Source: an uncultured Armatimonadetes bacterium (lineage in GTDB: Bacteria > Armatimonadota > UBA5829 > DTJY01). From it: DNA of 64,000 nt. The position numbers and the translations under genes are program-made. Positions within the stretch are counted from its first letter, which is position 1; every line of letters starts with the position of its first letter. Under the pieces are notes generated by a model, which worked only from the letters and a program-made list of their open reading frames with translations, made no database searches and had not been told where the DNA came from. This document shows, piece by piece, positions 9,557 through 64,000 of this stretch. The stretch covers positions 256,001-320,000 of the forward strand of contig OY970325.1 of assembly GCA_963717145.1 (NCBI GenBank), read 5' to 3'.

Positions 9557-10339
9557 ATGGATTTGGCTTGGCTTGGGGCACAGAAACTCGAGGTCTTCAT
9601 CCTCGTGTTGGCACGGACCGCCGGTATCTTCACGGTCACGCCGATCTTCGGCGCGAATCAGGTGCCGCCACAGGTGCGAATCGCCGCCGCGGTCGGGATG
9701 GCGATCATCTTTGTACCATTGTGTCCGTCCGAAGTTGTACTCGCGGTGGATGTACTGCCGATGGCCCTGCTCGTGGCGAAGGAGGCGTTCGTCGGGCTGG
9801 TGATCGGCTTTGTGGTGACGCTGGTGTTCACGGTCTTCCAGATCGCGGGCGACTTTATCGACGTGCAAGCAGGCTTCAGTTTCGCTACTATGGTCGACCC
9901 GGTGAACGGCGCGCACACATCGATCGCGGCAAGGTTCCATCAGATACTGATCGGCCTGCTCTTCTTCGCGACGAATGCACATCACGTGGTGATCACCGGG
10001 CTGGCCGACAGCTTCAAGCTCGTGCCGGTCGGATCGATGTCCATGAACCCGCTTGTGGCAAGCGGTATGCTGGATATCTTCGCAACCCTGTTCGGAGTTG
10101 CACTGAGGATCGCGTCGCCGGTCGTGGCAGCGGTATTCCTCGCGGATGTGGCGCTGGCGATCATGTGCCGAGCCGTTCCGCAGATGAATGTCATCATCGC
10201 CGGCATGCCGTTGAAACTGGGCGTCGGCATGGTGGGGATGCTCGTGGCGATCCCCGTGCTGGTGACCTCCAGCCAGGGGATGTTTTCGGATATGTACGCG
10301 CAGATGGGCGGCATGCTCCATCTGCTGGTTGCACCGTAG
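9557..10339 (+). CDS. fliR: Flagellar export protein FliR
   Basis: Hydrophobic; FQIAGDFIDVQAGFSFATMVDP; RAVPQMNV. Confidence 0.96.
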   Translation: MDLAWLGAQKLEVFILVLARTAGIFTVTPIFGANQVPPQVRIAAAVGMAIIFVPLCPSEVVLAVDVLPMALLVAKEAFVGLVIGFVVTLVFTVFQIAGDFIDVQAGFSFATMVDPVNGAHTSIAARFHQILIGLLFFATNAHHVVITGLADSFKLVPVGSMSMNPLVASGMLDIFATLFGVALRIASPVVAAVFLADVALAIMCRAVPQMNVIIAGMPLKLGVGMVGMLVAIPVLVTSSQGMFSDMYAQMGGMLHLLVAP

Positions 10340-10495
10340 GGGAGGCCTTCAACGGCCTCCCGATCACCGTAGGGGCGATCCTTCCACGGTCGCCCGCTGG
10401 AGGCCGTTGAAGGCCTCCCCTACGGTGTCACTCGTTTGGCGTAGGGGCGATCCTTCCACGGTCGCCCGCTGGAGGCCGTTGAAGGCCTCCCCTAC
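10336..10495. repeat. Mosaic REP cluster (families A and B)
   Basis: A = GTAGGGGAGGCCTTCAACGGCCTCCC (10336; reversed at 10399-10423 and 10471-10495); B = GTAGGGGCGATCCTTCCACGGTCGCCC (10369, 10441). Confidence 0.9.
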
Positions 10496-10524
10496 GGTCT
10501 GAGCGCAGGTTTGGTAGCAAGCTC

Positions 10525-11626: not shown

Positions 11627-13729
11627 GTGGCAGTGACAATCGCAAACGGAAAGCCATCGATCAGGCTGGAAGGCATCCTGAAGCACAGTGACATACTGGT
11701 CGCCGTCGCGGCGCTGGTGATCATCGGCATGATGGTCATCCCGTTGCCGTGCTGGCTTCTCGACATCCTGCTCACGGCCAACATCATGGTGGCGCTCGTC
11801 ATGCTTTTGGTCACCGTATATACGGTCCAGCCGCTGGAATTCTCTTCGTTCCCGTCGATGCTTCTGGTCGCGACTCTCTTCCGGCTCGCACTCAACATCG
11901 CCGCGACACGGCAGATTCTGCTCGACGCTCATGCAGGAGCGGTCATCACCGCGTTCGGATCGGTTGTCGTAGGCGGCAACTACGTCGTCGGCCTTGTAGT
12001 ATTCATCCTCCTGGTCATAATCCAGTTTGTCGTCGTTACCAACGGTACGGGCCGAGTCGCCGAGGTCGCCGCGAGGTTCACCCTCGACGCCATGCCGGGG
12101 AAGCAGATGGCCATCGACGCCGACCTGAACGCCGGCATCATCACTGAGGAGGAGGCAAAAGATCGGCGGAAGGCGGTCTCCCGTGAGGCCGACTTCTACG
12201 GAGCGATGGACGGCGCGAGCAAGTTCGTCAGGGGCGACGCGATCGCCGCCGTCATCATGATCGTCGTCAACATCATCGGTGGATTCCTCGTGGGCGTCGC
12301 TCAGCGGCACATGGAGTTCAACAGCGCCCTGCAGACGTACACCCTGCTGACCGTCGGTGAAGGCCTGGTCACTCAGGTGCCCGCGCTCCTGATCTCCGTG
12401 GCAGCCGGTCTGATGGTCACTAAGGCCGCATCGGACAACAGCCTCGGCCGAAATATGGCTTTCCAGATCTTCACTCAACCGAAGGCAATTGGCATCACCG
12501 CGGGTATCTGCGGTCTGCTCGCCCTCGTGCCCGGCATCCCCAAGATCCCGTTCATCCTTGCCGCCCTCGGTGGCGGGTTGCTCGCGAACATGCTCAAGCA
12601 GCAGCCGGCCGATCAAGTGGAGGAGCAGACGGTCGAAGCGCCGAGGCCGCCCGAGACGATGACCGACCTGCTGCTGGTCGATCCGATCGAGGTCGAACTC
12701 GGCTACGGGCTGATCCCGCTCGCCGACCCCAAGCAGGGGGGCGACCTGCTCGAGCGAATCACGGCCGTCAGACGCCAGACCGCCACGGAACTCGGGCTGC
12801 TCGTTCCGGCGATCCGCGTCCGGGACAACATGCAGCTCAAGCCGAACTCCTACAGCGTGAAACTGCGCGGGATCGAGATCGCCGGCGGTGAGGTCTATCC
12901 TGGCCAGATACTCGCGATGGACCCCGGTACTGCGACATCGGAACTCAAGGGGATACAGACGACCGAGCCTGCATTCGGCCTCCCCGCGACATGGATATCG
13001 GAGGCGCAGAAGCCCGAGGCCGAGATGAACGGCTTTACAGTCGTGGACCCGCTCACAGTCTTGATCACACATTTGGCGGAGATGATCCGCAAGCACGCGG
13101 ACGAGATTCTCACTCGACAGGACACTCAGACGCTGATCGACAGCCTCAAGGCGCAGTCGCCTGCGGTTGTCGAGGAGTTGATCCCGAACCTGCTCTCGGT
13201 CGGCGAGGTCCAGAAGGTCCTGCAGAACCTGCTGTCCGAGCGCGTATCGATCCGCGACCTGGCGGTCATCTTCGAGGGGCTTTCAGACGCGGCCCGGCTG
13301 ACCCGCGACACGGACTTGCTCACGGATTACGCCCGCCAGTACCTGAGCAGGCAGATCACGAAGCAGTACCTCTGCCCGGACAGCATCGTGCGGGTCTTCA
13401 CCCTCGATCCGATGGTCGAGCAGGCCATCGCAGACGGGATCAGGCACACGGAATCGGGCGCGCAACTCGTGCTCGAGCCGGGGGTGGCACAGGAATTGCT
13501 GGAGGAGACTCGGGAGCAGGCCGAAATGATGGCCTCAATGGGCTACATGCCGGTCGCCATCTGCTCGCCAAGAGTACGCATACACTACCGCCGTCTGGCT
13601 GAGCGCATGGCGCCCGCGCTGGCGGTGCTCTCGTTCAACGAACTAGCATCGGGCGTGAAGCTCGAGACTTTGGGAATGGTGACACTGGCACATGAGGATA
13701 GTGCGAATCAAAGCCTGCAATATGCATGA
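11627..13729 (+). CDS. flhA: Flagellar export ATPase platform FlhA
   Basis: RVAEVAARFTLDAMPGKQMAIDADLNAG; FYGAMDGASKFVRGDA. Confidence 0.98.
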   Translation: MAVTIANGKPSIRLEGILKHSDILVAVAALVIIGMMVIPLPCWLLDILLTANIMVALVMLLVTVYTVQPLEFSSFPSMLLVATLFRLALNIAATRQILLDAHAGAVITAFGSVVVGGNYVVGLVVFILLVIIQFVVVTNGTGRVAEVAARFTLDAMPGKQMAIDADLNAGIITEEEAKDRRKAVSREADFYGAMDGASKFVRGDAIAAVIMIVVNIIGGFLVGVAQRHMEFNSALQTYTLLTVGEGLVTQVPALLISVAAGLMVTKAASDNSLGRNMAFQIFTQPKAIGITAGICGLLALVPGIPKIPFILAALGGGLLANMLKQQPADQVEEQTVEAPRPPETMTDLLLVDPIEVELGYGLIPLADPKQGGDLLERITAVRRQTATELGLLVPAIRVRDNMQLKPNSYSVKLRGIEIAGGEVYPGQILAMDPGTATSELKGIQTTEPAFGLPATWISEAQKPEAEMNGFTVVDPLTVLITHLAEMIRKHADEILTRQDTQTLIDSLKAQSPAVVEELIPNLLSVGEVQKVLQNLLSERVSIRDLAVIFEGLSDAARLTRDTDLLTDYARQYLSRQITKQYLCPDSIVRVFTLDPMVEQAIADGIRHTESGAQLVLEPGVAQELLEETREQAEMMASMGYMPVAICSPRVRIHYRRLAERMAPALAVLSFNELASGVKLETLGMVTLAHEDSANQSLQYA

Positions 13730-14798
13730 GGCCCTGGCGGAAGCCAGGCGTCAACTCGGTGAGAGTGCGACCGTCCTGCACACCAGGCAGTTGGAGACAT
13801 CCGGCTGCCTCGGTCTCGTTCGCCGGCGCAAGGTCGAACTCCTTGCCGCTGTCGATTCACCCCCGGATCGCGCAGCCGTAGGGGAGGCCTTCAACGGCCT
13901 CCCGTCCGCCGGGAGGCCGTTGAAGGCCTCCCCTACGGCTGCGCGATCCGGGGGTGGTGATTCCGATATGGAGCAGATGGTCAGGGAGGTCTCAGAGCTT
14001 CGGCGTGTCGTGGCAAACATGGATTCACGGTTTTCGAGCGCCAACCAGCCAGTGGAGACGTCGCCGATCGTCGAGCGGCTTACACGAAGCGGAGTCCCCC
14101 ATGCCGTCGCTGAAGTGATCGACTCCGAGGGCAAGGGCGATCCGGCGAAGATCACCGAACTGATTGGACGGCGCATCAAATGCTCCGGGCCACTGAGGGT
14201 GGAGAAGACCCAGTCGCGAGTCGCACTGATCGGCCCGACCGGGGTGGGGAAAACCACCACAGTCGCCAAGCTCGCAGCGGAGTATACGCTGGTCCGGAAG
14301 AAGAAGGTCGCACTGCTCACGCTCGACACATATCGCATCGGGGCGGTCGAACAACTCGCCACATACGCGCGGCTTCTCGGCATCCCGCTTGAGGTCGCTC
14401 TCAGCCCCGAGGATGTCGCGAATCTGATCGCATCCCACGCGGACAAGGATCTGATACTCATCGATACTATCGGTCGGAGCCAACGCAGCCGCGAGCAGGT
14501 CGCCGAACTGGCCCGATTCCTGCGCGCTGCGGACCCGACGGAAGTGCATCTCGCGGTCTCAGCATCGGCCAACCCCGTCGCTCAGACCGAAGCCGTAAGC
14601 AGTTTTGGAATCATGTCCCCGAGCAGAATCGTGCTCACCAAGCTGGACGAGTGTCCGCAACCGGGATGCATCCTGGGGCTCTCGTCATCGAGCCTTCTGC
14701 CGATCTCATACGTGACCTACGGCCAGGACGTGCCGGACGACATTGCGGTGGCCCAGTCCGAGTCGCTCGCGAAGCTCGTCTGGGAGGGCGCGCCATGA
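13692..14798 (+). CDS. flhF: SRP-type GTPase FlhF carrying an in-frame palindrome insertion
   Basis: GPTGVGKTTT, DTYRIGA, DTIGRS, TKLDE, GQDVPDDI. Confidence 0.95.
   Translation: MRIVRIKACNMHEALAEARRQLGESATVLHTRQLETSGCLGLVRRRKVELLAAVDSPPDRAAVGEAFNGLPSAGRPLKASPTAARSGGGDSDMEQMVREVSELRRVVANMDSRFSSANQPVETSPIVERLTRSGVPHAVAEVIDSEGKGDPAKITELIGRRIKCSGPLRVEKTQSRVALIGPTGVGKTTTVAKLAAEYTLVRKKKVALLTLDTYRIGAVEQLATYARLLGIPLEVALSPEDVANLIASHADKDLILIDTIGRSQRSREQVAELARFLRAADPTEVHLAVSASANPVAQTEAVSSFGIMSPSRIVLTKLDECPQPGCILGLSSSSLLPISYVTYGQDVPDDIAVAQSESLAKLVWEGAP
13858..13956. repeat. Intragenic 47-bp perfect inverted repeat (REP-A doublet plus 20-bp arms) in flhF
   Basis: 13858-13904 is the exact reverse complement of 13910-13956. 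Confidence 0.95.
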
Positions 14799-15640
14799 CG
14801 GACCAGGCGTCGAGACTTCGAGCGCTCGTCATGGACCACGAACCCGCGGCAAGTGCTCTACGTGAGCCGGATGGGAACACCTCGATCACCGCCGTCACGA
14901 GCGGCAAGGGTGGGGTAGGGAAGACGACGATCGCTGTGAACCTTGCGGTCCTGTTCGCCGAACTCGGGGAGCGGGTCCTTCTTGTGGATGCGGACCTCGG
15001 GCTCGCGAACGTCGATGTCATGCTCGGAATGGAGTTCGGCCGGCACATGGGCCATCTCCTGATGAACGATTTCATGCCGGAGGATGTGTCGGTCGTCGGT
15101 CCGCGAGGGATATGTGTGATCTCCGGGGGATCGGGTCTCCGCGAGTTGGCTGATGCATCGGCCGCCGACCGCCTGGCGCTTCTCGATAAGCTGGCGGGAT
15201 ACTATCGGACCTTCGATCGGGTGGTCATCGACACCAGCCCCGGGATTGGGGCGGAGGTGACCGATTTTCTGGCTGGCGTTGACGAGATACTCCTGGTGAC
15301 GACGGTGGACCCCACGTCTCTGCGCGATACCTACGCGGCGCTGAAGAATATGACGCCTCTACGCCATAATGATAGTAGCATAAGATTGGTTGTCAACATG
15401 GTGACTTCAGAGGCACAGGCGGCACAGGCCGTCACGGTGCTGAACGAGGTCACGAACAGGTTTCTCGACCGGCGGTTCGATCATTGGCATTCGGTCAAGT
15501 CGGATGGGTTGGTTGGCAGGTCGATTCGCGCAAGGAAGCCGCTCGTCTGCGAGTATCGTCGCTCGGCGTCCGCGTTATGTTTGAGGGAGATGGCAGTTAG
15601 TCTCCAGTTACAGCGCAAAGGTTCTGTCGGAGGTCGCTAA
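14795..15640 (+). CDS. flhG: MinD-like ATPase FlhG/FleN
   Basis: DQASRLR N-terminal motif; SGKGGVGKT; DADLGLANVD. Confidence 0.93.
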   Translation: MTDQASRLRALVMDHEPAASALREPDGNTSITAVTSGKGGVGKTTIAVNLAVLFAELGERVLLVDADLGLANVDVMLGMEFGRHMGHLLMNDFMPEDVSVVGPRGICVISGGSGLRELADASAADRLALLDKLAGYYRTFDRVVIDTSPGIGAEVTDFLAGVDEILLVTTVDPTSLRDTYAALKNMTPLRHNDSSIRLVVNMVTSEAQAAQAVTVLNEVTNRFLDRRFDHWHSVKSDGLVGRSIRARKPLVCEYRRSASALCLREMAVSLQLQRKGSVGGR

Positions 15641-27012: not shown

Positions 27013-27534
27013 CTAAACCTTTCTGTCCAGGAGCAGGGCAGCGCCGCCTGGATCCGCCGCCGGATCGTAGGTCTGCTGCTCGCTCACAAGCTTGGATATG
27101 ATGCCGACGGAGAACTGGACGTACTCCATCATGGTCTTGAGCAATTGCGTATTGCCTGCCACCAGAGCCTGAAGAACGACCGCCAGGGCTCTGGTCTCCC
27201 GGTTGATCCCGGCGTATTGCGCCTCGAACTCGGACGCTGATGCTTCGGTAGGGGAGGCCTTCAGCGGCCTCCCGGCCGGGAGGCCGTTGAAGGCCTCCCC
27301 TACGGGACCATCCGACTCCGCGAGCATCCCGAGCAGCGACTCCTCGCGCTTCTCGACCTTCGCCAGATCGATCAGCAGCGGGTCGTGCTTCCTCAGGTTC
27401 TCCTGCAGGTCAGCATGTCGCCGCTCCAGGAGTATGGCGCGTTGTTCCTCGGCCAGTGAGATCAGCTCCTGCAAACGCTGAAGCCTGAACCGTGCGGCCG
27501 TTATCAACTCGTTTCTGATGGTAGTAGCGTCCAT
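27013..27534 (-). CDS. flgN: Export chaperone FlgN carrying an in-frame palindrome insertion
   Basis: Helical protein between flgM and flgK, ends LLDRKV. Confidence 0.8.
   Translation of the reverse strand: MDATTIRNELITAARFRLQRLQELISLAEEQRAILLERRHADLQENLRKHDPLLIDLAKVEKREESLLGMLAESDGPVGEAFNGLPAGRPLKASPTEASASEFEAQYAGINRETRALAVVLQALVAGNTQLLKTMMEYVQFSVGIISKLVSEQQTYDPAADPGGAALLLDRKV
27248..27303. repeat. Intragenic REP-A doublet in flgN
   Basis: GTAGGGGAGGCCTTCAGCGGCCTCCCGGCCGGGAGGCCGTTGAAGGCCTCCCCTAC. Confidence 0.93.
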
Positions 27535-34038: not shown

Positions 34039-34151
34039 CCTGTATCCGTAGGGGCGATCCTTCAACGGTCGCCCGATTCTTCGGCAGCGACACTGTCTTC
34101 TGCTACCGAACTATCGGGCGACCGTTGAAGGATCGCCCCTACGGATACAGG
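34039..34151. repeat. REP-B doublet with 9-bp outer arms and inner family-F remnant
   Basis: CCTGTATCC-GTAGGGGCGATCC...GGATCGCCCCTAC-GGATACAGG. Confidence 0.88.
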
Positions 34152-34165
34152 ACTGGACAACCATC

Positions 34166-35716
34166 ATGAGTTCCAACGTCAAACAAGTCAGCAAGGGCGC
34201 GGATGTCGACGAGCGGCTCGCCGCGCTGCTCTCGAACGCGGGAGCGGTACGCGCGGTTGCCTCGTCGATCGAGGGCACGCTCGGTCCAAAGGGCCTCAAC
34301 TGCATGCTCGTCGATAAGTTCGGCGATGTCACCATCACGAACGACGGCAGTGCAATCCTGAGCAAGGTCGATGCCAACCATCCCGCCGCCCGCATGCTCA
34401 TCCGGATCGCCAGGGCACAGGACGAGGAGGTCGGCGACGGCACCACCACGGCCGCCGTGCTCGCCAGTGCGCTCCTCGCGGAGGGAGTCAGCCAAGTCGC
34501 GCGTGGAGTGCCGGTCACGAAGGTGATCGAGGGCATCTCGATCGGTATCCGCAAGGCGCTCGAGGTCGTCGAGTCGGCCGCGAGACCGATCTCCGGCTGG
34601 GACGACCCGCTTCTCTGGCAGGCGGCATATATCGCCGGTCGGGAGAGCAATGACATCGCGGACCTGGTCGTCCGAGCCGCGCAACTGGTCGGCGAGGAGA
34701 AGCTGAAGGATCCCGGATTCCGGCTTTCCGATTGTGTGGTCGCCCGTGAAGGAGCGCAGAACGAGGTCTTCACCGGTCTCATCATCGAGAAGGAGCGCAT
34801 GAACCGCCAGATGCCGCGCTCGATCGAAAATGTTCGGGTACTCGTCGTGGACGATGCGCTCGAGCCGGAACAGATCGAGGACGACGCGCTCGGCACGGAA
34901 TCGGGATTTGCGCGATACGTCCAGCTTCAGAACGAGTTTCGCGACGACCTGCGCAAGCTCATTGACCTCAACATCGGCATGGTGGTCGTCCACAAGGCGG
35001 TTGCCGATGCGGCGGAGGATGTCCTTACTGACGAGGGGGTGCTCGTCATCCGCCGAGCATCCTCGAAAGATATAGCCCGAATCGTCGAGCACACCGGAGC
35101 GCGGACCATCAAGCGCACGGGGCTCAAGAAGCCGTCCGAGGAGCTGGGAAAGTTTGTCGGAAAATGCGAGCGGGTATACGAGGATGAACGTCTCGAACAC
35201 ACCCGCATCATCGGTGGCGCAGGGAAACCTGCGGCGACGATACTGGTCGGCGCGGCCACCCGTGAGGTGAAAGAGGAGCGGGAGCGCATCGCCGAAGACG
35301 CGGCTGCGTCGGTGCAGGCCGTCGTCGTCGGCGGGATCGTCCCGGGCGGTGGCGCCATCGAGATCGCGGCCTCCAGGGAGGTCGCGGCGATGAGGGATGG
35401 CGTGAAGGGCATGACTTCCTACGGCGTGGACGCCGTCGCCGAAGCCCTGAAGCGCCCGCTCGGTCAGATCGTGACCAACGCCGGGTTCAACCCACTCGAG
35501 AAGGTCGAGGATGTGGTTGCCGCTCAAGCCGTGGACGGGAAGAACAGCCTGGCGGTGAACTGCGATACCGGCGAGATAGCCGATATGATGGAGATCGGTG
35601 TCGTCGATCCGGCAAAGGTCAAGCTCTATGCGCTCAAGGCCGCCGCCGAGATCGCGGAAGCGATCCTGCGAATCAACACGATCATCAAGTGCAGAGACGG
35701 GCAGTCTAACGAGTAA
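34166..35716 (+). CDS. Thermosome-like (group III) chaperonin
   Basis: TLGPKG, ITNDG, VGDGTTT, VPGGGAIE, ILRIN; no GGM tail; no groES nearby. Confidence 0.9.
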   Translation: MSSNVKQVSKGADVDERLAALLSNAGAVRAVASSIEGTLGPKGLNCMLVDKFGDVTITNDGSAILSKVDANHPAARMLIRIARAQDEEVGDGTTTAAVLASALLAEGVSQVARGVPVTKVIEGISIGIRKALEVVESAARPISGWDDPLLWQAAYIAGRESNDIADLVVRAAQLVGEEKLKDPGFRLSDCVVAREGAQNEVFTGLIIEKERMNRQMPRSIENVRVLVVDDALEPEQIEDDALGTESGFARYVQLQNEFRDDLRKLIDLNIGMVVVHKAVADAAEDVLTDEGVLVIRRASSKDIARIVEHTGARTIKRTGLKKPSEELGKFVGKCERVYEDERLEHTRIIGGAGKPAATILVGAATREVKEERERIAEDAAASVQAVVVGGIVPGGGAIEIAASREVAAMRDGVKGMTSYGVDAVAEALKRPLGQIVTNAGFNPLEKVEDVVAAQAVDGKNSLAVNCDTGEIADMMEIGVVDPAKVKLYALKAAAEIAEAILRINTIIKCRDGQSNE

Positions 35717-35834
35717 CAAGTAGTCCGTAGGGGCGATCCTTCTACGGTCGCCCGGTTGGGGTGATAGACTTGGAAGGATTGTCCCGACGAACCGGGCGAC
35801 CGTAGAAGGATCGCCCCTACGGACTACTTGTTAC
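35713..35834. repeat. REP-B doublet with 14-bp outer arms
   Basis: GTAACAAGTAGTCC-GTAG...CTAC-GGACTACTTGTTAC. Confidence 0.9.
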
Positions 35835-55835: not shown

Positions 55836-58800
55836 CTAGTGGAAGGTTATCGACAGGTTGTCTATGCCGGTGTGCAGCCAGTATCCCTTCCACGGCTGCA
55901 GCAGCGTTGTGTCCGCATAGTCGTCGTCGAGGCCCAGGGTCATGATGTTGCTGCCATTGTTGTCCCACCAGTAGCAGATGGTGTTCAGCCAACCAAGGTT
56001 CCTCGCCGTGGAGATCGGTCGTGTATACAGACCTTGGCTCACCGTAACCATGTTCCAGTCCTTGGGTCCCATGAACGGGCAGCCGATGATGTACCACCCG
56101 GCTCTGGGAAGGGCAATGGTACGCTCGGTCTGGGGCGCTACGTCGGCCGGTTCGTAGCTGATGGTCGAGGGCACCGGTGTCCAGAGCCAGTAGCCGTCGT
56201 CTATGCTTACATCGCCGAAATCCGACGGACTGTACTGCGAATAGATGATCAGGTTTTGGGTGGCGCCATCCCGGCGATACAGAGTGCCATCGATATCGAT
56301 CCCCTGGAAGACAACGAGAGGATTGGGGTCCGCGGGCTGGGCCGGAAGGCTAAGCAGGTTCCATCCTGCGGTAACCATGCCGGGCGGAGACGTCAACATG
56401 CCCGACTCGATCGCCGCATCCTTTCGGAGCACGTCGCCCGCCGAGAGTTCGAGTCCACCGAACGCCTTAGGCCCGTAGCCCTCCTTGCTGATCGCCACTC
56501 TGTAGATCCCCGGGGGCAGGTCAAGGAACGCGTACGTGCCTGTGGCATCGGTGCGAGTCGTTCTTTCGACCGGCCCTCTGATCGTTACGGACGCTTTGTA
56601 TATCCAATTGCGGTAGATCGGATGGTTCGGCTCAGCTACATCCGTGATCGTCCCGAAGATGATTCCTGTTGTCGGTTGATCCTTCCATGGCATGTCGGGG
56701 ATCGGCGCCGGCTGGCTGAACAGGTCCGCCGTGACGGCATCGAAGAAGGCCCCCGCCGGTTGACCATCCTTGTTGGTCACGGCGTAGCTGTACGCACACA
56801 GTCCGTCGCACCCGGAGTTGCGCGAGTAGGTCATCTGATCGATACTCGCAGAGATCGAGTTCATGTAGATGCCCTGTCCATCGACTGCAAGCCTTCCGGA
56901 TGAGCCTGCCGCTCTGGGCAGCCAGTTCGCCCATTCGCGATAGCTCGCCTTCTGGACTGTGTTGTACTCGCGCTTGTAGTTCATGAGGATGTTGATGTCA
57001 ATGATATGCTGATTCATCCAGCCACGGGCATCCTGGAAGACGCCGGCATACTGGGGCGTGCGTTCGTACTCCGTATTGGGATCCGCGCCGTCCCAGCCAA
57101 CGGTATCGACCGACATCTTGATCCGCGGGTTCAGGTACATGGCCTCGACGTAGCACTTCGTCAGCAGATCGGTGACCTGCTGCCTTCGATAATCGCACCA
57201 GACCTGCCAGTTCGCAGAGGGGTTGCTGCCATCCTCGCCCACAGGCGAGGTCGGGGGATAGTAGCCGTGCTCGTACTGGAAGCGCCACCTGACGTACTGG
57301 TTGTAGCCCCAGTTCGTGCCGGGATAGCGCACATAGTCGAAGTTGATGCCGTCCAGCGTCTGGTACTGGCCGACGATGTCCTTCACGATGTTGGCGATAT
57401 AATCCTGAACGCCCGGAACACCGGGGTCGATGTTCAGGCTGTTGCCTTCCTGATAGCCGCCTCCTGAGGTCCTCATCGACCAGTCCTCGGCGGATTCCGG
57501 CCCGTGTTCAGCCCAGACGTGTCCCGCCTCAGCATCCGGATAAGTGAGAAACCATGCCCGGTAGGTCACGATCCACGCATGGACCTCGATCCCCTTGGCG
57601 TGTGCCTTGTCGATTAGATCCTGGAGCGGGTCGTATGCCCCCTCAGGCGGCGTTATATTCGTGCCCCATGGCTCGTATTGGGAAATGTAGTAGGCATCCC
57701 CCGCCTTCCTGACCTCCACCACGATGGCGTTGTAGTTGGCGGCGGAGACCTTATTCACGAACGCAGTCGTCTCTTCAGCGCTGAGGAAGCCGTTGTGCCA
57801 AGTGTCAGCCCAGATCATGCGGTATTCCGGGGCGGTGGACGAGGTGGCGAATGTGTGATCCTCGGAAACCGTCGTATTCCCGGCGCCGTCCGTGGACTTG
57901 ACCCGGAAGTGATAGAGCGTATCGGTCAGCAGACCTTCGAGGGTCACGCTGTGCAGGGTGACGAGGTTTACGTCAAGGGGCGATTCGGAGCCGTAGTCTG
58001 TCGTGATCCCATACTCCACCTGGGAGTTGGCCGGCTCGTTCGTTTTCCACCTCACGATGGCCGAGTCCATGCGCCTGGACACGGATATCTCGGAGATGAC
58101 GGGCGGCGTCTCATCAGGGCCTCCGGTGGTGAAGTAGAATGGCCCCACGTTGATCTCATTCGACTCGGCGTCCTTGGATACCACACAGTAGGTGTAGGTC
58201 GTGTCTGGATCGAGTCCCGTTATCACGACTCTGTGGTCCGTTACGAGTTCTGAGTCGAGTGGGGTCTGCGAGGTGTAGCCCCCGATGCCGTATCCGACCA
58301 GCGATGTTGCAGGCTCATCTGTGACCCAGGTGATGACGACCGAGTTGGATCCCGGGTCGGCGCTGACCTCTGATATCACCGGTGGAGTAACATCGGCCGA
58401 CTTCGTCGTGAACCAATATACTCCCTTGGTGACGCAGTTTCGGCGCGCGTCACAAGACACAACCGCGTAGTAGTATTTCGTATCCGGCAGCAGGTTCGTC
58501 AGAGTGACGGAGTGATCCGTTACCAGCGTTATGTCTTCGACCGTCTCGCCGGTCGGAGGATTGGATGTTCCGTAGCGCACCTGAGATGTTGCCGGCTCGT
58601 CGGTCACCCAGGTGATGACGCAGGTACGCGATCCGGGATCAGCCTTCACCGTGTACGTCTTGGGTGGAGCGATATCGAGCGCCTTGGTGGTGAACGTGTG
58701 ATCGCTGGATACAGAGGTGTTCCCCGAGTCGTCGGTCGAGATCACGCGATAGTGGTAATCTGTCTCCGGCAGCAGGTTCGGAATGAGCACGCTGTGGTCC

Positions 58801-60026
58801 ATGACCAGTTCCAGATCCTCTGTCGTGATGTTTCCGTACGATGACGTCGGACCGTACTCCACCTGTGATGTCGAATTCTCGTTGGTGTGCCAGGTTATCA
58901 GTACCGAGTTGGTCTCCGGGTATGCCGTCTCCTCGCTGATCTCGGGTGGAGTTGTATCCAGTGGGGTAGTGGTGAACGCCACGTCGTCGGACACGCCAGT
59001 GTTGCCCGCTCCATCGAGCGATTGCGCCCTGAGGTGGTACCCGGTCGAGGGCTCGAGCCCCCTGATGGTCACATGGTGATAGGTGATGAGTCTGGTGTCC
59101 AGCACGCTGGAGCTGCCATATGAGGTTGTTTCGCCATAGCTCACCAGAGTATCAGCCGGTTCATCCGTCAGCCAGGTGACGACCACGGATCTGGCGCCGG
59201 GCACTACGGTCAGGCCGGAAATCAGTGGCGGAAACTTGTCTTCTCCCTCCAGACGGAACGTGTGGTCGGGAGAAATCGCAGAGTTGCCCACTGCGTCGGT
59301 GGAGTGAATCCTGAAGTGGTAGAGTGTCAGCGGATCGAGTCCCGTGATGCTCACCGAGTGCTGCGTGACGTCAGCGTTGTCCAGGGTGGTCAGGTTGCCG
59401 TAGCCGATGGTAGTTCCGTACTCGACCTGCGAGTCAGCGGGTTCGTCGGTATCCCAGGTGATCACAGCCGATTCCGAGCCCGCGACGACCTGCACGTTCG
59501 AGATGATCGGAGGCGACTGGTCGCCGCCGTGGGAATAGAATCGAACCGCATCTGCGACAACGATCTTGTTGATATCCGGGCCATTGTTCGTTATCTGAAC
59601 GTAGTTGCCGGTCCCGGGGTTCATGTCATACGTTCCCAGGAAGACCCACGTGCCGCCGTTCTGCTGCTGATTGACTTGCAGGACGGTGTCAGGCTCGGTT
59701 CCGGCATGGTGCACCGTGACGTTGGCGCGCACCGTCCTGTCCATTCCAGCCGGGTACCAGATGTAGACCTCCCACTGCATGCCTGTCGCCCCCAGGTCCG
59801 GGGTGAAGGTCACCGAGTTGCCGTTTCCAGGGCTCTGACTGCAGTAGAGGTAGCTGTCGCCCTTCTTGGCGCTCGACGAGGTGCCCGTCGTCCAAGTGCC
59901 CGTCACACTGATCCATTCGGAGTTCACCTTGTCATCGATGATTATGTCGTTGGCCATCACTGCCGGTGACAGCAGTGCCACGACAAGCGCCGTTATCAGG
60001 ACGAACCTCGGCCGTAGGACTTGCAT
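55836..60026 (-). CDS. Large secreted protein: golvesin-like domain, six FN3-like repeats, GHL10 hydrolase, carboxypeptidase-regulatory-like domain, conserved C-terminal domain
   Basis: VADAVRF; six PP-IS...W-TDEP...YG repeats; EVHAW, DGINFDYVRYP; GWNLLSLP. Confidence 0.85.
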   Translation of the reverse strand: MQVLRPRFVLITALVVALLSPAVMANDIIIDDKVNSEWISVTGTWTTGTSSSAKKGDSYLYCSQSPGNGNSVTFTPDLGATGMQWEVYIWYPAGMDRTVRANVTVHHAGTEPDTVLQVNQQQNGGTWVFLGTYDMNPGTGNYVQITNNGPDINKIVVADAVRFYSHGGDQSPPIISNVQVVAGSESAVITWDTDEPADSQVEYGTTIGYGNLTTLDNADVTQHSVSITGLDPLTLYHFRIHSTDAVGNSAISPDHTFRLEGEDKFPPLISGLTVVPGARSVVVTWLTDEPADTLVSYGETTSYGSSSVLDTRLITYHHVTIRGLEPSTGYHLRAQSLDGAGNTGVSDDVAFTTTPLDTTPPEISEETAYPETNSVLITWHTNENSTSQVEYGPTSSYGNITTEDLELVMDHSVLIPNLLPETDYHYRVISTDDSGNTSVSSDHTFTTKALDIAPPKTYTVKADPGSRTCVITWVTDEPATSQVRYGTSNPPTGETVEDITLVTDHSVTLTNLLPDTKYYYAVVSCDARRNCVTKGVYWFTTKSADVTPPVISEVSADPGSNSVVITWVTDEPATSLVGYGIGGYTSQTPLDSELVTDHRVVITGLDPDTTYTYCVVSKDAESNEINVGPFYFTTGGPDETPPVISEISVSRRMDSAIVRWKTNEPANSQVEYGITTDYGSESPLDVNLVTLHSVTLEGLLTDTLYHFRVKSTDGAGNTTVSEDHTFATSSTAPEYRMIWADTWHNGFLSAEETTAFVNKVSAANYNAIVVEVRKAGDAYYISQYEPWGTNITPPEGAYDPLQDLIDKAHAKGIEVHAWIVTYRAWFLTYPDAEAGHVWAEHGPESAEDWSMRTSGGGYQEGNSLNIDPGVPGVQDYIANIVKDIVGQYQTLDGINFDYVRYPGTNWGYNQYVRWRFQYEHGYYPPTSPVGEDGSNPSANWQVWCDYRRQQVTDLLTKCYVEAMYLNPRIKMSVDTVGWDGADPNTEYERTPQYAGVFQDARGWMNQHIIDINILMNYKREYNTVQKASYREWANWLPRAAGSSGRLAVDGQGIYMNSISASIDQMTYSRNSGCDGLCAYSYAVTNKDGQPAGAFFDAVTADLFSQPAPIPDMPWKDQPTTGIIFGTITDVAEPNHPIYRNWIYKASVTIRGPVERTTRTDATGTYAFLDLPPGIYRVAISKEGYGPKAFGGLELSAGDVLRKDAAIESGMLTSPPGMVTAGWNLLSLPAQPADPNPLVVFQGIDIDGTLYRRDGATQNLIIYSQYSPSDFGDVSIDDGYWLWTPVPSTISYEPADVAPQTERTIALPRAGWYIIGCPFMGPKDWNMVTVSQGLYTRPISTARNLGWLNTICYWWDNNGSNIMTLGLDDDYADTTLLQPWKGYWLHTGIDNLSITFH

Positions 60027-60139
60027 TCGTGTACCTCCTCGCTCTCGATCGAAGGAACGGACGTGATGAATCGAGTGGCCCGCATCGCCGGGCGGTGGCG
60101 GCGCGGGACCACTCGATGGAAAGTCACGCAATCATCACC

Positions 60140-62873
60140 CTACTGCAGGGTGAGCGTTATGTCATTAACGTAGGTCTGCACCCAGTAGCCGTGCCATGGC
60201 CTGATGATGTTCCAGGCAACGAAGTCCTCCGGTAGACCGAAGTCCACCAGGCTCTGAGTCTCCGCATCCCACCAGTAGCCGGTGGAATTCATCCAGTTGT
60301 TGGTCTGAGCGGCCGTGAGTATGGTCACCGTCTCAGCGCCATGCTTGACCGTGGTATCCGCCCACTGTCTGTCGGTCTCGAACGGGCAGCCCATGATCGC
60401 CCATCCTGCTGTGGGCAGAGGAATGTCGTGGGAGCTGCCGCTGCTCGGATTCGCCTCGTACGAAATCGTCCCGGCAGAGGCTGCTTGCAGCCAGTAGCCG
60501 TTTTCGATATCCATGTTGCCGAACTGCTCGGGACTCCATGTGTCGTAGATGAGGAGGCTCTGCGTCGGGTTGTCCCACCTGTAGAGCGCGCCGTCTATGC
60601 TGATTCCGCTGAGCACAACCGCCGGATCGGGGTTCACCGGCTGAAGTGGAAGGCTGATCAGACTCCAACCGTTGACAAGCACGCCGGCCGGGGATGTCTT
60701 GGTCACAGTTCCGAGCGCGACGTCCTTCCTGACCATCTGGCCTGCGCTCACCGATACGGCAGTGATCACCTGTGTCGGGAATCCGGTCTTGCTGATTGTG
60801 ACAGCGTAGGTTCCCGGCGTCAGATCGAGGAATCCGTATGTGCCAGTGGCGTCAGTCTGAGTGCTGCTGATCTCGGGGCCGCTCAGGGAGACTGTCGCCT
60901 TGTAGATCCAGTCTGCGTAAATCGGATCGTTGGGGGTCGATGCGTCCGTCACCGTTCCGAAGATCACGCCATTGGTAGGCTGAGTTTTCCAGGTCATCTC
61001 AGGTACGGGGACGTATTCCGGATAGACCTGGCTCTCCACGGTGCCGAAGAATAAGGGGGGATCCAGCACCGGAGGGCTGACGTGGGGAACCGCGTAGCTA
61101 TAGTTGCACATGCCACCATTGCCTGTCGATCGGCTATAGAGCATCTGAGTGACCGTATCTGCTATCGAGTTCAGATATGCGCCGTTTCCGTCAACAGAGA
61201 ATCTGCCGCTGGTGTCGCCGAGGTTGGCCAGGTAGTCGCTCCATATGCGGAAGTCCGGACCCTGTGCGGCATCGAACTCTCGCTTGTAGTTCATCTGGAC
61301 CGTCATATCGACTATGTGGTCGAGCATCCACTGCTTGCCGTTCTGATAGACATCGGCATACTGGCGGGTTCCCTCGAAGCTCGTGTTCGGGTTGCCCTGC
61401 GACCATGCGACCGTGTCTACCGAAACGTTGATCGTCGGGTTGATATAGGTTGCCTCCAGCCAAATCTTCTTCATGAGATCGCTGACCTGCTGCCTGCGAT
61501 AGTCGCACCAGGTGCTCCAACCGGCGCCTGCACTCGTGGTCGGCGGCATGTATCCATACTCGTCGAAGAAGCGCTGCATGGTGAGTTCGTTATATCCCCA
61601 TGTGGTGCCGGGATATCGAATGTAGTCGAAGTTGACACCGTCCATCGTCGGGTATTTCGACACGCAGTCTGTGACGACCTTGCAGAGATAGTCCTGCACG
61701 CCCGGAACGCCTGGATCGAGGTTCCAACTGGTGCCATCAGTGATGCTTCCGGTATTGGTCTTCATTGCCCACTCAGGATGCAGTGTCCAGACATGATTCG
61801 CGGGCGGGGCGGGCCAGTTATTCCTCCAGACCCGATATGCTACGAACCAGCCATGTACCTCGATGCCTTGCGCATGACACTTGGTCAGCATGTCCGCAAG
61901 TGGATCATAGGCGCCGCCACCCGGGCTGATGTTGGTTGCCCAGGGCTCGTAGGCCGAGTTATAGTAGGCGTCTCCTGATTTTCTGATCTCAGGGATCAGC
62001 ACATTGTAATTGGCCGCTGCCATCGTATTAACGAGGTTTGTCGTCTCCGCTTCAGTCAGGAAGCCGTTGTGCCATGTGTCGGCCCAGATCGCACGGACCT
62101 CGGGGACTGGAGGGGCGGTCGTGAACTGATAGTCGCCGGAAGCTGCCGGATTCCCCGAGCCATCGTCGGATTTGACGCGAAAATGAAACAGCGTCTGGGA
62201 TGTCAACCCCGAAACGGTGACAGAGTGGCTGGTAACCAGACCGGTATCCTTGGTCGTCTGGCTGCCATACCCCGCGGTCAGGCCGTACTCGACCTGCGAG
62301 GTAGCGGCCTCATCGGTGGTCCAGGTGATGATCGCGCTGTTCACACCCGGAGCCGAGGACACGCCACTGATCACCGGCGGAGTTGTATCGCCCGCGGTGA
62401 CCGAATAGAAGCGCATCGCGTCCGCGATTGCCCTTCTTGTTCCGCTGGCGGCGTAATTCGTGATGCGGGTGTAGTTTCCCGTGCCCGCATTCATCGTGTA
62501 CGCACCAACCAATACCCACATGCCCTGGTTTGCGTTCTGGGGTATGATGACGGTCGTATCCCCCAGCGGCGTGGTGCGTAATGAACTGCGTTCCCTGAGA
62601 TGATTGACTCACTGTTGGGAACCAGGTGTACACCTGCCAATCACTCGCCGTGGACGGTATGTTCGGCGTATACGTGGCAGTAGCCGATCCCGAGCTGCTC
62701 TGGTTGACGTACCGGTAGTCCGCCCCATACTTGTTCGTGGCGCTGGTCGCCGTGACCCAGGTGCCCGCAAATACAGCACTCGGATTGTCCACGATCACTT
62801 CCTGTGATGCTGTTGCCGGGACAACCAGGCCTATCAGCAACACAGCCAGGATGACCCACATTCCAGTCTTCAT
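60140..62873 (-). CDS. Paralogous secreted GHL10 protein with one FN3 repeat; frameshift ~62562
   Basis: MKTGMWVIL signal; extra G in a G run; DGVNFDYIRYP; GWSLISLP. Confidence 0.85.
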
Positions 62874-63007
62874 AATGCGATTCCTCCACTCCCTTGATAT
62901 TGAAGCTCCACTCTCAAAGCGTATCAACGAGAGGTCAAGAGCGTAATGACCTCCCTGTGCGGGGTTAACCATCAACAATACAGACGCATGCCCATCATTG
63001 AGCATAC

Positions 63008-63024
63008 TGCAAGATTGGTGCCAG
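63008..63024 (-). promoter_or_regulatory. Sigma-54 promoter
   Basis: CTGGCAC-CAATC-TTGCA on the minus strand, ~135 nt upstream of 62873. Confidence 0.72.
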
Positions 63025-63122
63025 TTACGCCGTTTTGCCCGCTATCAGGTAATCTCATAAGGTTACCCGACCTGCTGTCCCCTGCAGTAAAGACGTGCGA
63101 GCGTCACATCCGTTTCCTGTTC

Positions 63123-64000
63123 TTACTGCAATATCAGCGACAGATCGCCCACATAGGTCTGCACCCAGTAGCCGTGCCACGGCTGAATGATCTCGCTCGA
63201 GGCGAAGTCTTCCGGTATACCGAAGTCACACAGGCTCTGAGTGACAGCATCCCACCAATAACCGCTGGAATTTAGCCACTCGTTCGTCTTGGCGGCCGCG
63301 AGAATGGGTACCGTCTCAGTTCCATGCTTGACGAGGGTGTCTCCCCATTGTCTCTCAGTCTCGAACGGGCAGCCGATGATCGCCCATCCCATCGTCGGAA
63401 GCGATATCGTCCGCTGAGCGGACGTTCCGCCGTATGCCTGGTAGCTGATATTCGCAACCGATTCGGACTGCAGCCAGTAGCCGCTTCTCGATGCTCACAG
63501 TCCCGAACTGCTCGGGCTCCATGAATCGTAGAGCAGGAGACTCTGCGTCGGATTGTCCCACCTGTACAATCTGCCATCGATGTTGATGCCGCTGAATACC
63601 GACGCGGGATCGGGATTCGCAGGCATACAGGGAATGCTCAGCAGACTCCAGCCGTTCACGACGACTCCCTCAGGCGATGTCACAGTCACGAAGCCGAGAT
63701 CGAAGTCCTCCCGGAGCGCCTGACCGGCTGCAAGGACCTGCGCAGTGTAACTCCTGGTCGGGAATCCGCTCTTGGATGTGGTGACCGTGTAAGTCCCGGG
63801 AGGCAGATCGAGGAATCCATATGTCCCGGTGGCGTCGGTGCTCGTGCTGCGGGTGACGGGTCCGGTGAGGTTCACCGTCGCCTTGTAGATCCAATTCTTG
63901 TAGATCGAGTCGTTCGGCTTGGCGGCGTTCGTCACGGTCCCGAAGATCGTGCCCGTGGTCGGTGCGGTCTTCCACGGCATGTCCGGGATCGCGGCGGGCG
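63123..64000 (-). CDS. 3' part of a third paralog (two compensating indels ~63515 and ~63485)
   Basis: MPWKTAPTTGTIFG...GWSLLSIP...GWAIIGCPF...PWHGYW. Confidence 0.82.

Follow-up and report, generated by a model that had tools for sequence, protein, structure and literature searches.

How does a long and perfect palindrome come to lie inside the reading frame of flhF, and is it carried for the sake of the transcript, of the protein or of neither? The initial annotation of the 64,000-nucleotide stretch analysed here (the window) described a perfect 47-bp inverted repeat at codons 56-88 of an intact flhF, with an otherwise intergenic REP-A doublet as its core. Our analysis confirmed this description and narrowed the doublet. 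The features at the locus are:

11627..13729, plus strand: flhA (FHIPEP), the end of which overlaps the flhF start by 38 nt
13692..14798, plus strand: flhF, 368 aa, with a folded N-terminal domain (about residues 1-55), a variable linker (56-92) and a helix plus NG GTPase
13858..13904, plus strand: left arm of the perfect 47-bp inverted repeat
13858..13877, plus strand: outer 20-bp symmetric flank, found only at the flhF site and mirrored at 13937-13956
13878..13903, plus strand: REP-A copy 1, with the GTAG tetranucleotide, an 8-bp stem and a 6-nt loop
13910..13956, plus strand: right arm of the inverted repeat
13911..13936, minus strand: REP-A copy 2, inverted, which with copy 1 forms a GTAG-outward doublet (REPIN-like)
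14795..15640, plus strand: flhG-like MinD/ParA ATPase gene, directly downstream of flhF

The two arms (13858-13904 and 13910-13956) are 47 nt long, 100% complementary and separated by a 5-nt loop, and the predicted RNA fold of the repeat region reaches −118.7 kcal/mol (z = −18.8), a stability matched by none of 200 shuffles. The palindrome reads from the second base of codon 56 to the first base of codon 89, i.e. residues 56-88, with the encoded peptide as initially given. The REP doublet proper is confined to 13878-13936 (59 bp). Beyond it, the outermost 20 bp of each arm matched nothing else in the genome at up to two mismatches and one place at three, and a source of this flank elsewhere in the genome was rejected.

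The ORF at 13692-14798 was identified as FlhF by the NCBIfam model TIGR03499 (203.8 bits, cut-off 174.15); it retains an intact SRP-type GTPase (SRP54 domain at 176-361), its best PDB matches are FlhF proteins and the gene stands in the order flhA-flhF-flhG. An AlphaFold model based on 25 orthologues had a mean pLDDT of 86.5, with high confidence for residues 1-55, of which residues 2-54 are predicted to form strand-helix-strand-strand (E-H-E-E), and with residues 58-88 as the only segment below 50. Linker length varied widely among the 25 orthologues, and their alignment placed the insert in the variable linker that separates the GTPase from the N-terminal domain, in agreement with the flexible B-region proposed at the outset. 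Counted by hand, the stretch from AVD to the next helix comprises 37 residues here versus 16 and 23 in two palindrome-free close relatives. The palindrome thus appears to have replaced part of an existing linker; judged from these sequences the net gain is about 14-21 residues, short of the 33 residues of the whole peptide.

The 26-nt REP-A unit comprises GTAG, an 8-bp stem and a 6-nt loop. It occurs 10 times in the window (0.00 expected, 100 shuffles) and 126 times at up to three mismatches in the 5.37-Mb single-contig genome, which the names carried by homologous sequences place probably in Armatimonadota. At up to two mismatches we counted 123 copies here, nine in the closest genome, G001, one in G038 and none in the other 38 of the 41 genomes searched, i.e. 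the repeat is high-copy, dispersed and lineage-restricted. Inverted doublets such as 13878+/13936− were likewise counted genome-wide. A search of the genome for Y1 transposases gave seven matches, five of which were scanned with the model NF047646 (REP-associated tyrosine transposase): three scored above the cut-off of 80 bits and two below. The RAYT gene L032, about 27.5 kb from the flhF palindrome, scores 96.9 bits on this model and has REP-A on both sides, as expected of the cognate RAYT, and the GTAG-REP family postulated in the initial annotation was thereby corroborated. Four other RAYT-like genes have abundant GTAG families at their flanks, a different one for each gene. In all, the genome contains at least five RAYT-like genes with GTAG flanks of their own, in addition to a single IS200-like gene and a single Y1 gene without REPs close by.

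We compared the same linker in the closest FlhF sequences. The FlhF of G001 (82% identity) carries in this linker an array, likewise in frame, of another GTAG REP, which has 151 copies in G001 and none here and which flanks G001's own RAYT. In P0002 the linker, translated by hand, appears to match a doublet of the REP-I family of the present genome, and the linker of P0003 back-translates to a putatively self-complementary stretch. When 116 linkers were scored by back-translation, the query, P0002 and P0003 ranked top and were the only ones clearly above their shuffles, in a test with false negatives, as the known palindromic linker of G001 scored no higher than its shuffles. L152 is identical to P0002 at 272 of 277 residues (98%) over the GTPase part, and the visible linkers of the two are wholly different; that of L152, which lies at a contig end with 17 linker residues visible, contains the right arm of yet another repeat, one matched 65 times in the present genome. 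The exact L152 motif was found elsewhere only in two distant genomes. No palindrome was seen in the linkers of P0005-P0007, of which P0007 may be frameshifted. Hence palindrome-derived linkers were found in five of the eight closest FlhF sequences, and judged by sequence these five are apparently of five different kinds. In the tree the query, P0002, P0003 and L152 formed a supported clade, while G001 was placed tentatively beside P0007. The best tree required two changes and one was compatible as well, so that either a single origin with overwriting or two or more insertions would fit.

The comparison was extended to nine insert sites. G001 has a different palindrome at three of them (flhF, nadE and a U32 protein, the last two by eye), a short tandem repeat at uvrC and nothing at gltX, metG, mtnA, the SIS protein and flgN. 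We considered gltX as a second hotspot and rejected it, since none of 18 homologues and none of 13 aligned relatives had an insert at its site. For nadE, the five database homologues had short linkers only. Both results argue against a general rule of recolonisation. At flhF itself, the sequences suggest that the linker site has been repeatedly recolonised or overwritten. The wider proposal, that palindromic repeats, RAYT-driven or not, overwrite the same protein linkers again and again in this Armatimonadota lineage, is one that we hold tentatively and place slightly on the doubtful side of an even balance. If overwriting is the correct reading, 25-60 residues would be swapped wholesale between strains with GTPase domains still 98% identical. 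The FlhF linker would then be a coding site where repeats turn over rapidly, through preferential targeting of a hairpin already present or through selection for a hairpin.

The latter possibility leads to the best of the competing explanations, namely that selection acts on the hairpin as RNA or as DNA and that the stem in the flhA-flhF-flhG transcript tunes FlhF output or mRNA decay. The balance of FlhF and FlhG sets the flagellar pattern, the stem is perfect and very stable, and unrelated palindrome families recur at the flhF site in the closest relatives, all of which would fit such a role. However, P0005-P0007 and nearly all distant relatives among the 116 linkers scored show no palindrome, and G001 lacks an element at five of the nine sites compared. 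Moreover, perfect symmetry of the outer flanks is frequent in these families (at least 10 symmetric flank bases at 81 of 381 doublets genome-wide versus 843 of 25,232 mismatched control pairs) and thus needs no special selection. We therefore regard selection on the hairpin as improbable and favour insertion of a RAYT-spread doublet into a tolerant tether.

For a genome-wide census we combined a hexamer gene caller of our own with 12 motif families; since flhF itself was missed by the gene caller, the internal counts are lower bounds. The 1,194 REP matches fell into 597 arrays, 405 of them intergenic, 111 overlapping a gene end and 21 inside a gene near an end. The repeats are thus mostly extragenic, with 18 of the 87 REP-A-containing arrays and 60 of the 597 arrays of all families being internal, the latter in 55 genes. 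After one doubtful internal call (weak family M) was dropped, 54 of the 55 genes were scanned for families, and 22 of them had NCBIfam matches at 1e-30 and 36 had Pfam matches at 1e-12. Insert-bearing genes include gltX, metG, NAD synthase, uvrC, mtnA, moaA, cysNC and iorA. Orthologue alignments of eight further genes (gltX, metG, nadE, mtnA, the SIS protein, the U32 protein, uvrC and flgN) showed that in relatives the segment is absent, shortened or exchanged for other sequence while the frame is preserved; the insert was absent altogether from the gltX, metG, mtnA, SIS protein and flgN orthologues. For moaA, the query used found no orthologue in five genomes. The flgN case also lies in the window:

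27248..27303, strand not assigned: second in-frame REP-A doublet of the window, inside flgN (27013-27534, minus strand), absent from the G001 orthologue

The tRNA synthetase genes gltX and metG each had one match in this genome; if they are essential, the insert-bearing proteins must work. Both gltX (L054, G000:C1:1735168-1736709) and metG (L055, 1778112-1780358) have their in-frame REP-A array in or next to the anticodon-binding region, and in gltX the last residues of the REP resemble ancestral ones that were apparently replaced. A non-GTAG palindrome family with C/G runs lies in frame at a second insert site of metG (residues about 575-610), and also in nadE (L127) and U32 (L147) of G001. 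The metG of G006 (L109) is eight residues shorter than most relatives at the REP site, possibly an excision scar. A second in-frame insert was likewise seen in uvrC (L046, residues about 290-330), a different, imperfect palindrome outside the motif families, which means that the census undercounts.

The initial annotation held that the family adds peptide segments to proteins. The probe peptides VGEAFNGLP, GRPLKASPT, RGGLQRPP and EAVEGLPY, proposed there for a search of conserved genes, were found well inside 8, 9, 3 and 6 predicted genes, gltX and metG among them. That part of the claim stood, and the flhF segment, being no net gain of 33 residues, qualifies it. The reading frame of both REP-A arms differs from gene to gene, and therefore no one peptide is conserved; G, P and A are abundant in the coding inserts. 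Of the three frames of each arm, two are free of stops. A rough landing model (random sites, 56% stop-free frames, one third of lengths in frame and no protein-level selection) predicted that about 50% of arrays would be internal versus 10% seen, pointing to strong filtering in which most frame-keeping insertions are purged or avoided.

That the REP-encoded peptide itself serves a function, for instance as a novel interaction module, might be suspected from the recurrence of the same 8-9 residue motifs in several proteins. This recurrence follows from the repetition of the DNA, however; several frames and unrelated families are used, the peptides of the relatives at the flhF site are wholly different and the segment is predicted to be disordered, and we consider a peptide function very unlikely. 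REP peptides were also seen to yield false homologies between unrelated proteins.

The remaining alternative is that the repeat is not truly coding, with flhF starting downstream, decaying or being misassembled, and an in-frame ATG at 13968, picked by a naive gene caller, would suit the first of these; yet the conserved start, the pattern of codon differences, the confidently folded residues 1-55, the collinear locus and dozens of frame-keeping inserts, which cannot be assembly noise, leave it scarcely credible. The ATG at 13692 is in the same position relative to the flhA end in 10 of the 10 loci shown, and a stop lies in the same frame four codons before it. Over codons 14-54, the differences from G001 fall on 6, 3 and 17 first, second and third positions, respectively, and 43 of residues 1-55 are identical. 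A downstream start, by which the initial annotation would have fallen, was rejected given the conserved position of 13692 and the third-position bias. With the start conserved, every sequence criterion marks the repeat as coding. To the left and right of the palindrome the locus is collinear with that of G001. None of the relatives' contigs (about 88-96% identity) spans the element, and three cease to align at 13856, its outer edge. Sequencing runs screened for words of this genome included none with half of them, and no matching RNA run was listed. The flhA/flhF overlap (13692-13729) is common to most relatives examined, and the flhA tail has the same last three residues and stop in seven of the nine relatives shown. 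The flhF start has been moved by one public gene call (P0001), as it was by our own gene caller.

We thus consider it quite probable that a RAYT-spread doublet sits in frame in a tolerant tether of FlhF and is carried as a disordered G/P/A-rich peptide. In sequence, REP-A is a high-copy GTAG hairpin flanking a RAYT gene, and most other abundant REP families of this genome likewise flank a RAYT-like gene of their own. As known from RAYT biology, the transposase would spread doublets, some of them into genes. Since each arm stops in only one of three frames, many insertions would keep the frame, and those in loops and linkers would persist. In flhF, the doublet with its 20-bp mirrored flanks would have come to occupy the tether that joins the N-terminal domain to the GTPase, at the expense of part of the earlier linker sequence. 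Its predicted translation is a G/P/A-rich disordered tether that leaves both domains intact, and with both intact FlhF probably still works. The sequences show the anatomy of the element, its RAYT linkage and its absence or replacement in relatives; we infer the mobilisation of REP-A by the RAYT, the translation of the insert and normal FlhF function. The FlhF linker may in addition be a recurrent sink for different palindrome families, by repeated insertion or overwriting; pure neutrality does not by itself explain palindromic linkers in five of eight FlhF sequences versus none of 18 gltX homologues.

Further repeats were observed in the window. Intergenic doublets of another family with 11-14 bp mirrored flanks lie at 35713-35834 and 34039-34151, and one flank of the former resembles the empty-site sequence of G001, suggesting that host DNA was copied inverted. 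A mixed two-family REP array (10334-10498) starts at the fliR stop codon, the TAG of its GTAG ending the gene; a REP GTAG supplying the stop codon of a gene has been reported for other REPs. Large internal repeats (spacing 2983 and 4304) and 282-bp repeated units occur at 55900-64000 in long minus-strand genes.

The basic event has already been published and the present case therefore overturns nothing. Its value lies in a single genome that combines several RAYT/REP pairs with no fewer than 60 inserts that keep the frame, some of them in single-copy tRNA synthetases, which amounts to a natural map of tolerant loops. Should the linker turnover be real overwriting, the way in which REPINs choose and replace their targets becomes testable, as the reading frame records every exchange. 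Moreover, the moved flhF starts and the false homologies from REP peptides are a warning for annotators.

Among known systems, the Rickettsia palindromic elements (RPEs) are palindromic repeats found in frame in many unrelated proteins. They are predominantly coding, with one favoured frame and peptide; RPE-1 is about 150 bp long and RPE-4/6 are of the CGTC type. The flhF element shares with them the palindrome and the in-frame presence in many unrelated proteins. In contrast, it is shorter than RPE-1, GTAG-type and linked to a RAYT, and most of its copies are extragenic and those in genes are read in several frames.

The domain layout resembles that of Shewanella FlhF, described in the sections consulted as a FliG-interacting domain of three strands and one helix in the first 60 residues, an uncharacterised linker and NG (PMC11236974). 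The same FID-linker-NG layout is predicted here, with E-H-E-E in residues 2-54 and the insert beginning at residue 56, four residues before position 60.

The organisation agrees with that of REPIN-RAYT systems, where, in the portion of the preprint available, an inverted REP pair of about 100 bp, a RAYT flanked by its own REP and several RAYT/REP pairs per genome are described; Bertels and Rainey state there that REPINs are almost exclusively extragenic (bioRxiv 10.1101/2021.07.10.451892). According to the part of the REPORTH study available, 13 of 20 always-occupied sites in P. chlororaphis mix REPIN types, which the authors interpret as possible overwriting (bioRxiv 10.1101/2024.10.14.618302). 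Those sites are extragenic, whereas here an exchange would rewrite a protein linker.

Literature searches for REPs or RAYTs in Armatimonadota gave no relevant account, and the "intragenic repeats" of PMC2718517 were rejected as a precedent, being protein domains and not REPs. The closest precedent is the work of Di Nocera, De Gregorio and Rocco (2013), who described GTAG REP dimers that code in frame for 20-30 residues (PMC3733652). That paper, in its section 15 and supplementary file 3, places many such dimers in genes of Opitutus, Pseudomonas, Stenotrophomonas and Xanthomonas, so that two premises of the initial annotation, that REPs are extragenic by definition and that in-frame palindromes are known mainly from Rickettsia, had to be abandoned. 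About 70 rows concern Opitutus terrae, and the hosts include the SRP-GTPase FtsY (itself among the Opitutus rows), UvrA and tRNA synthetases; the authors suggest neutrality in flexible linkers (PMC3733652). A word search of supplementary file 3 found neither flhF nor any other flagellar gene. Two Xanthomonas species carry different REPs at approximately the same position of recB (PMC3733652), and beyond this remark the literature that we saw, in part as excerpts, contained no account of REPIN overwriting inside proteins. GTAG hairpins, in-frame dimers and many hosts are common to that study and ours; the host lineage, the REP sequence and the approximately five kinds of palindrome at one coding site are new here. 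Thus an in-frame REP doublet in a gene is a known kind of event, and the occupation of the same site by different hairpin families in close relatives is its twist.
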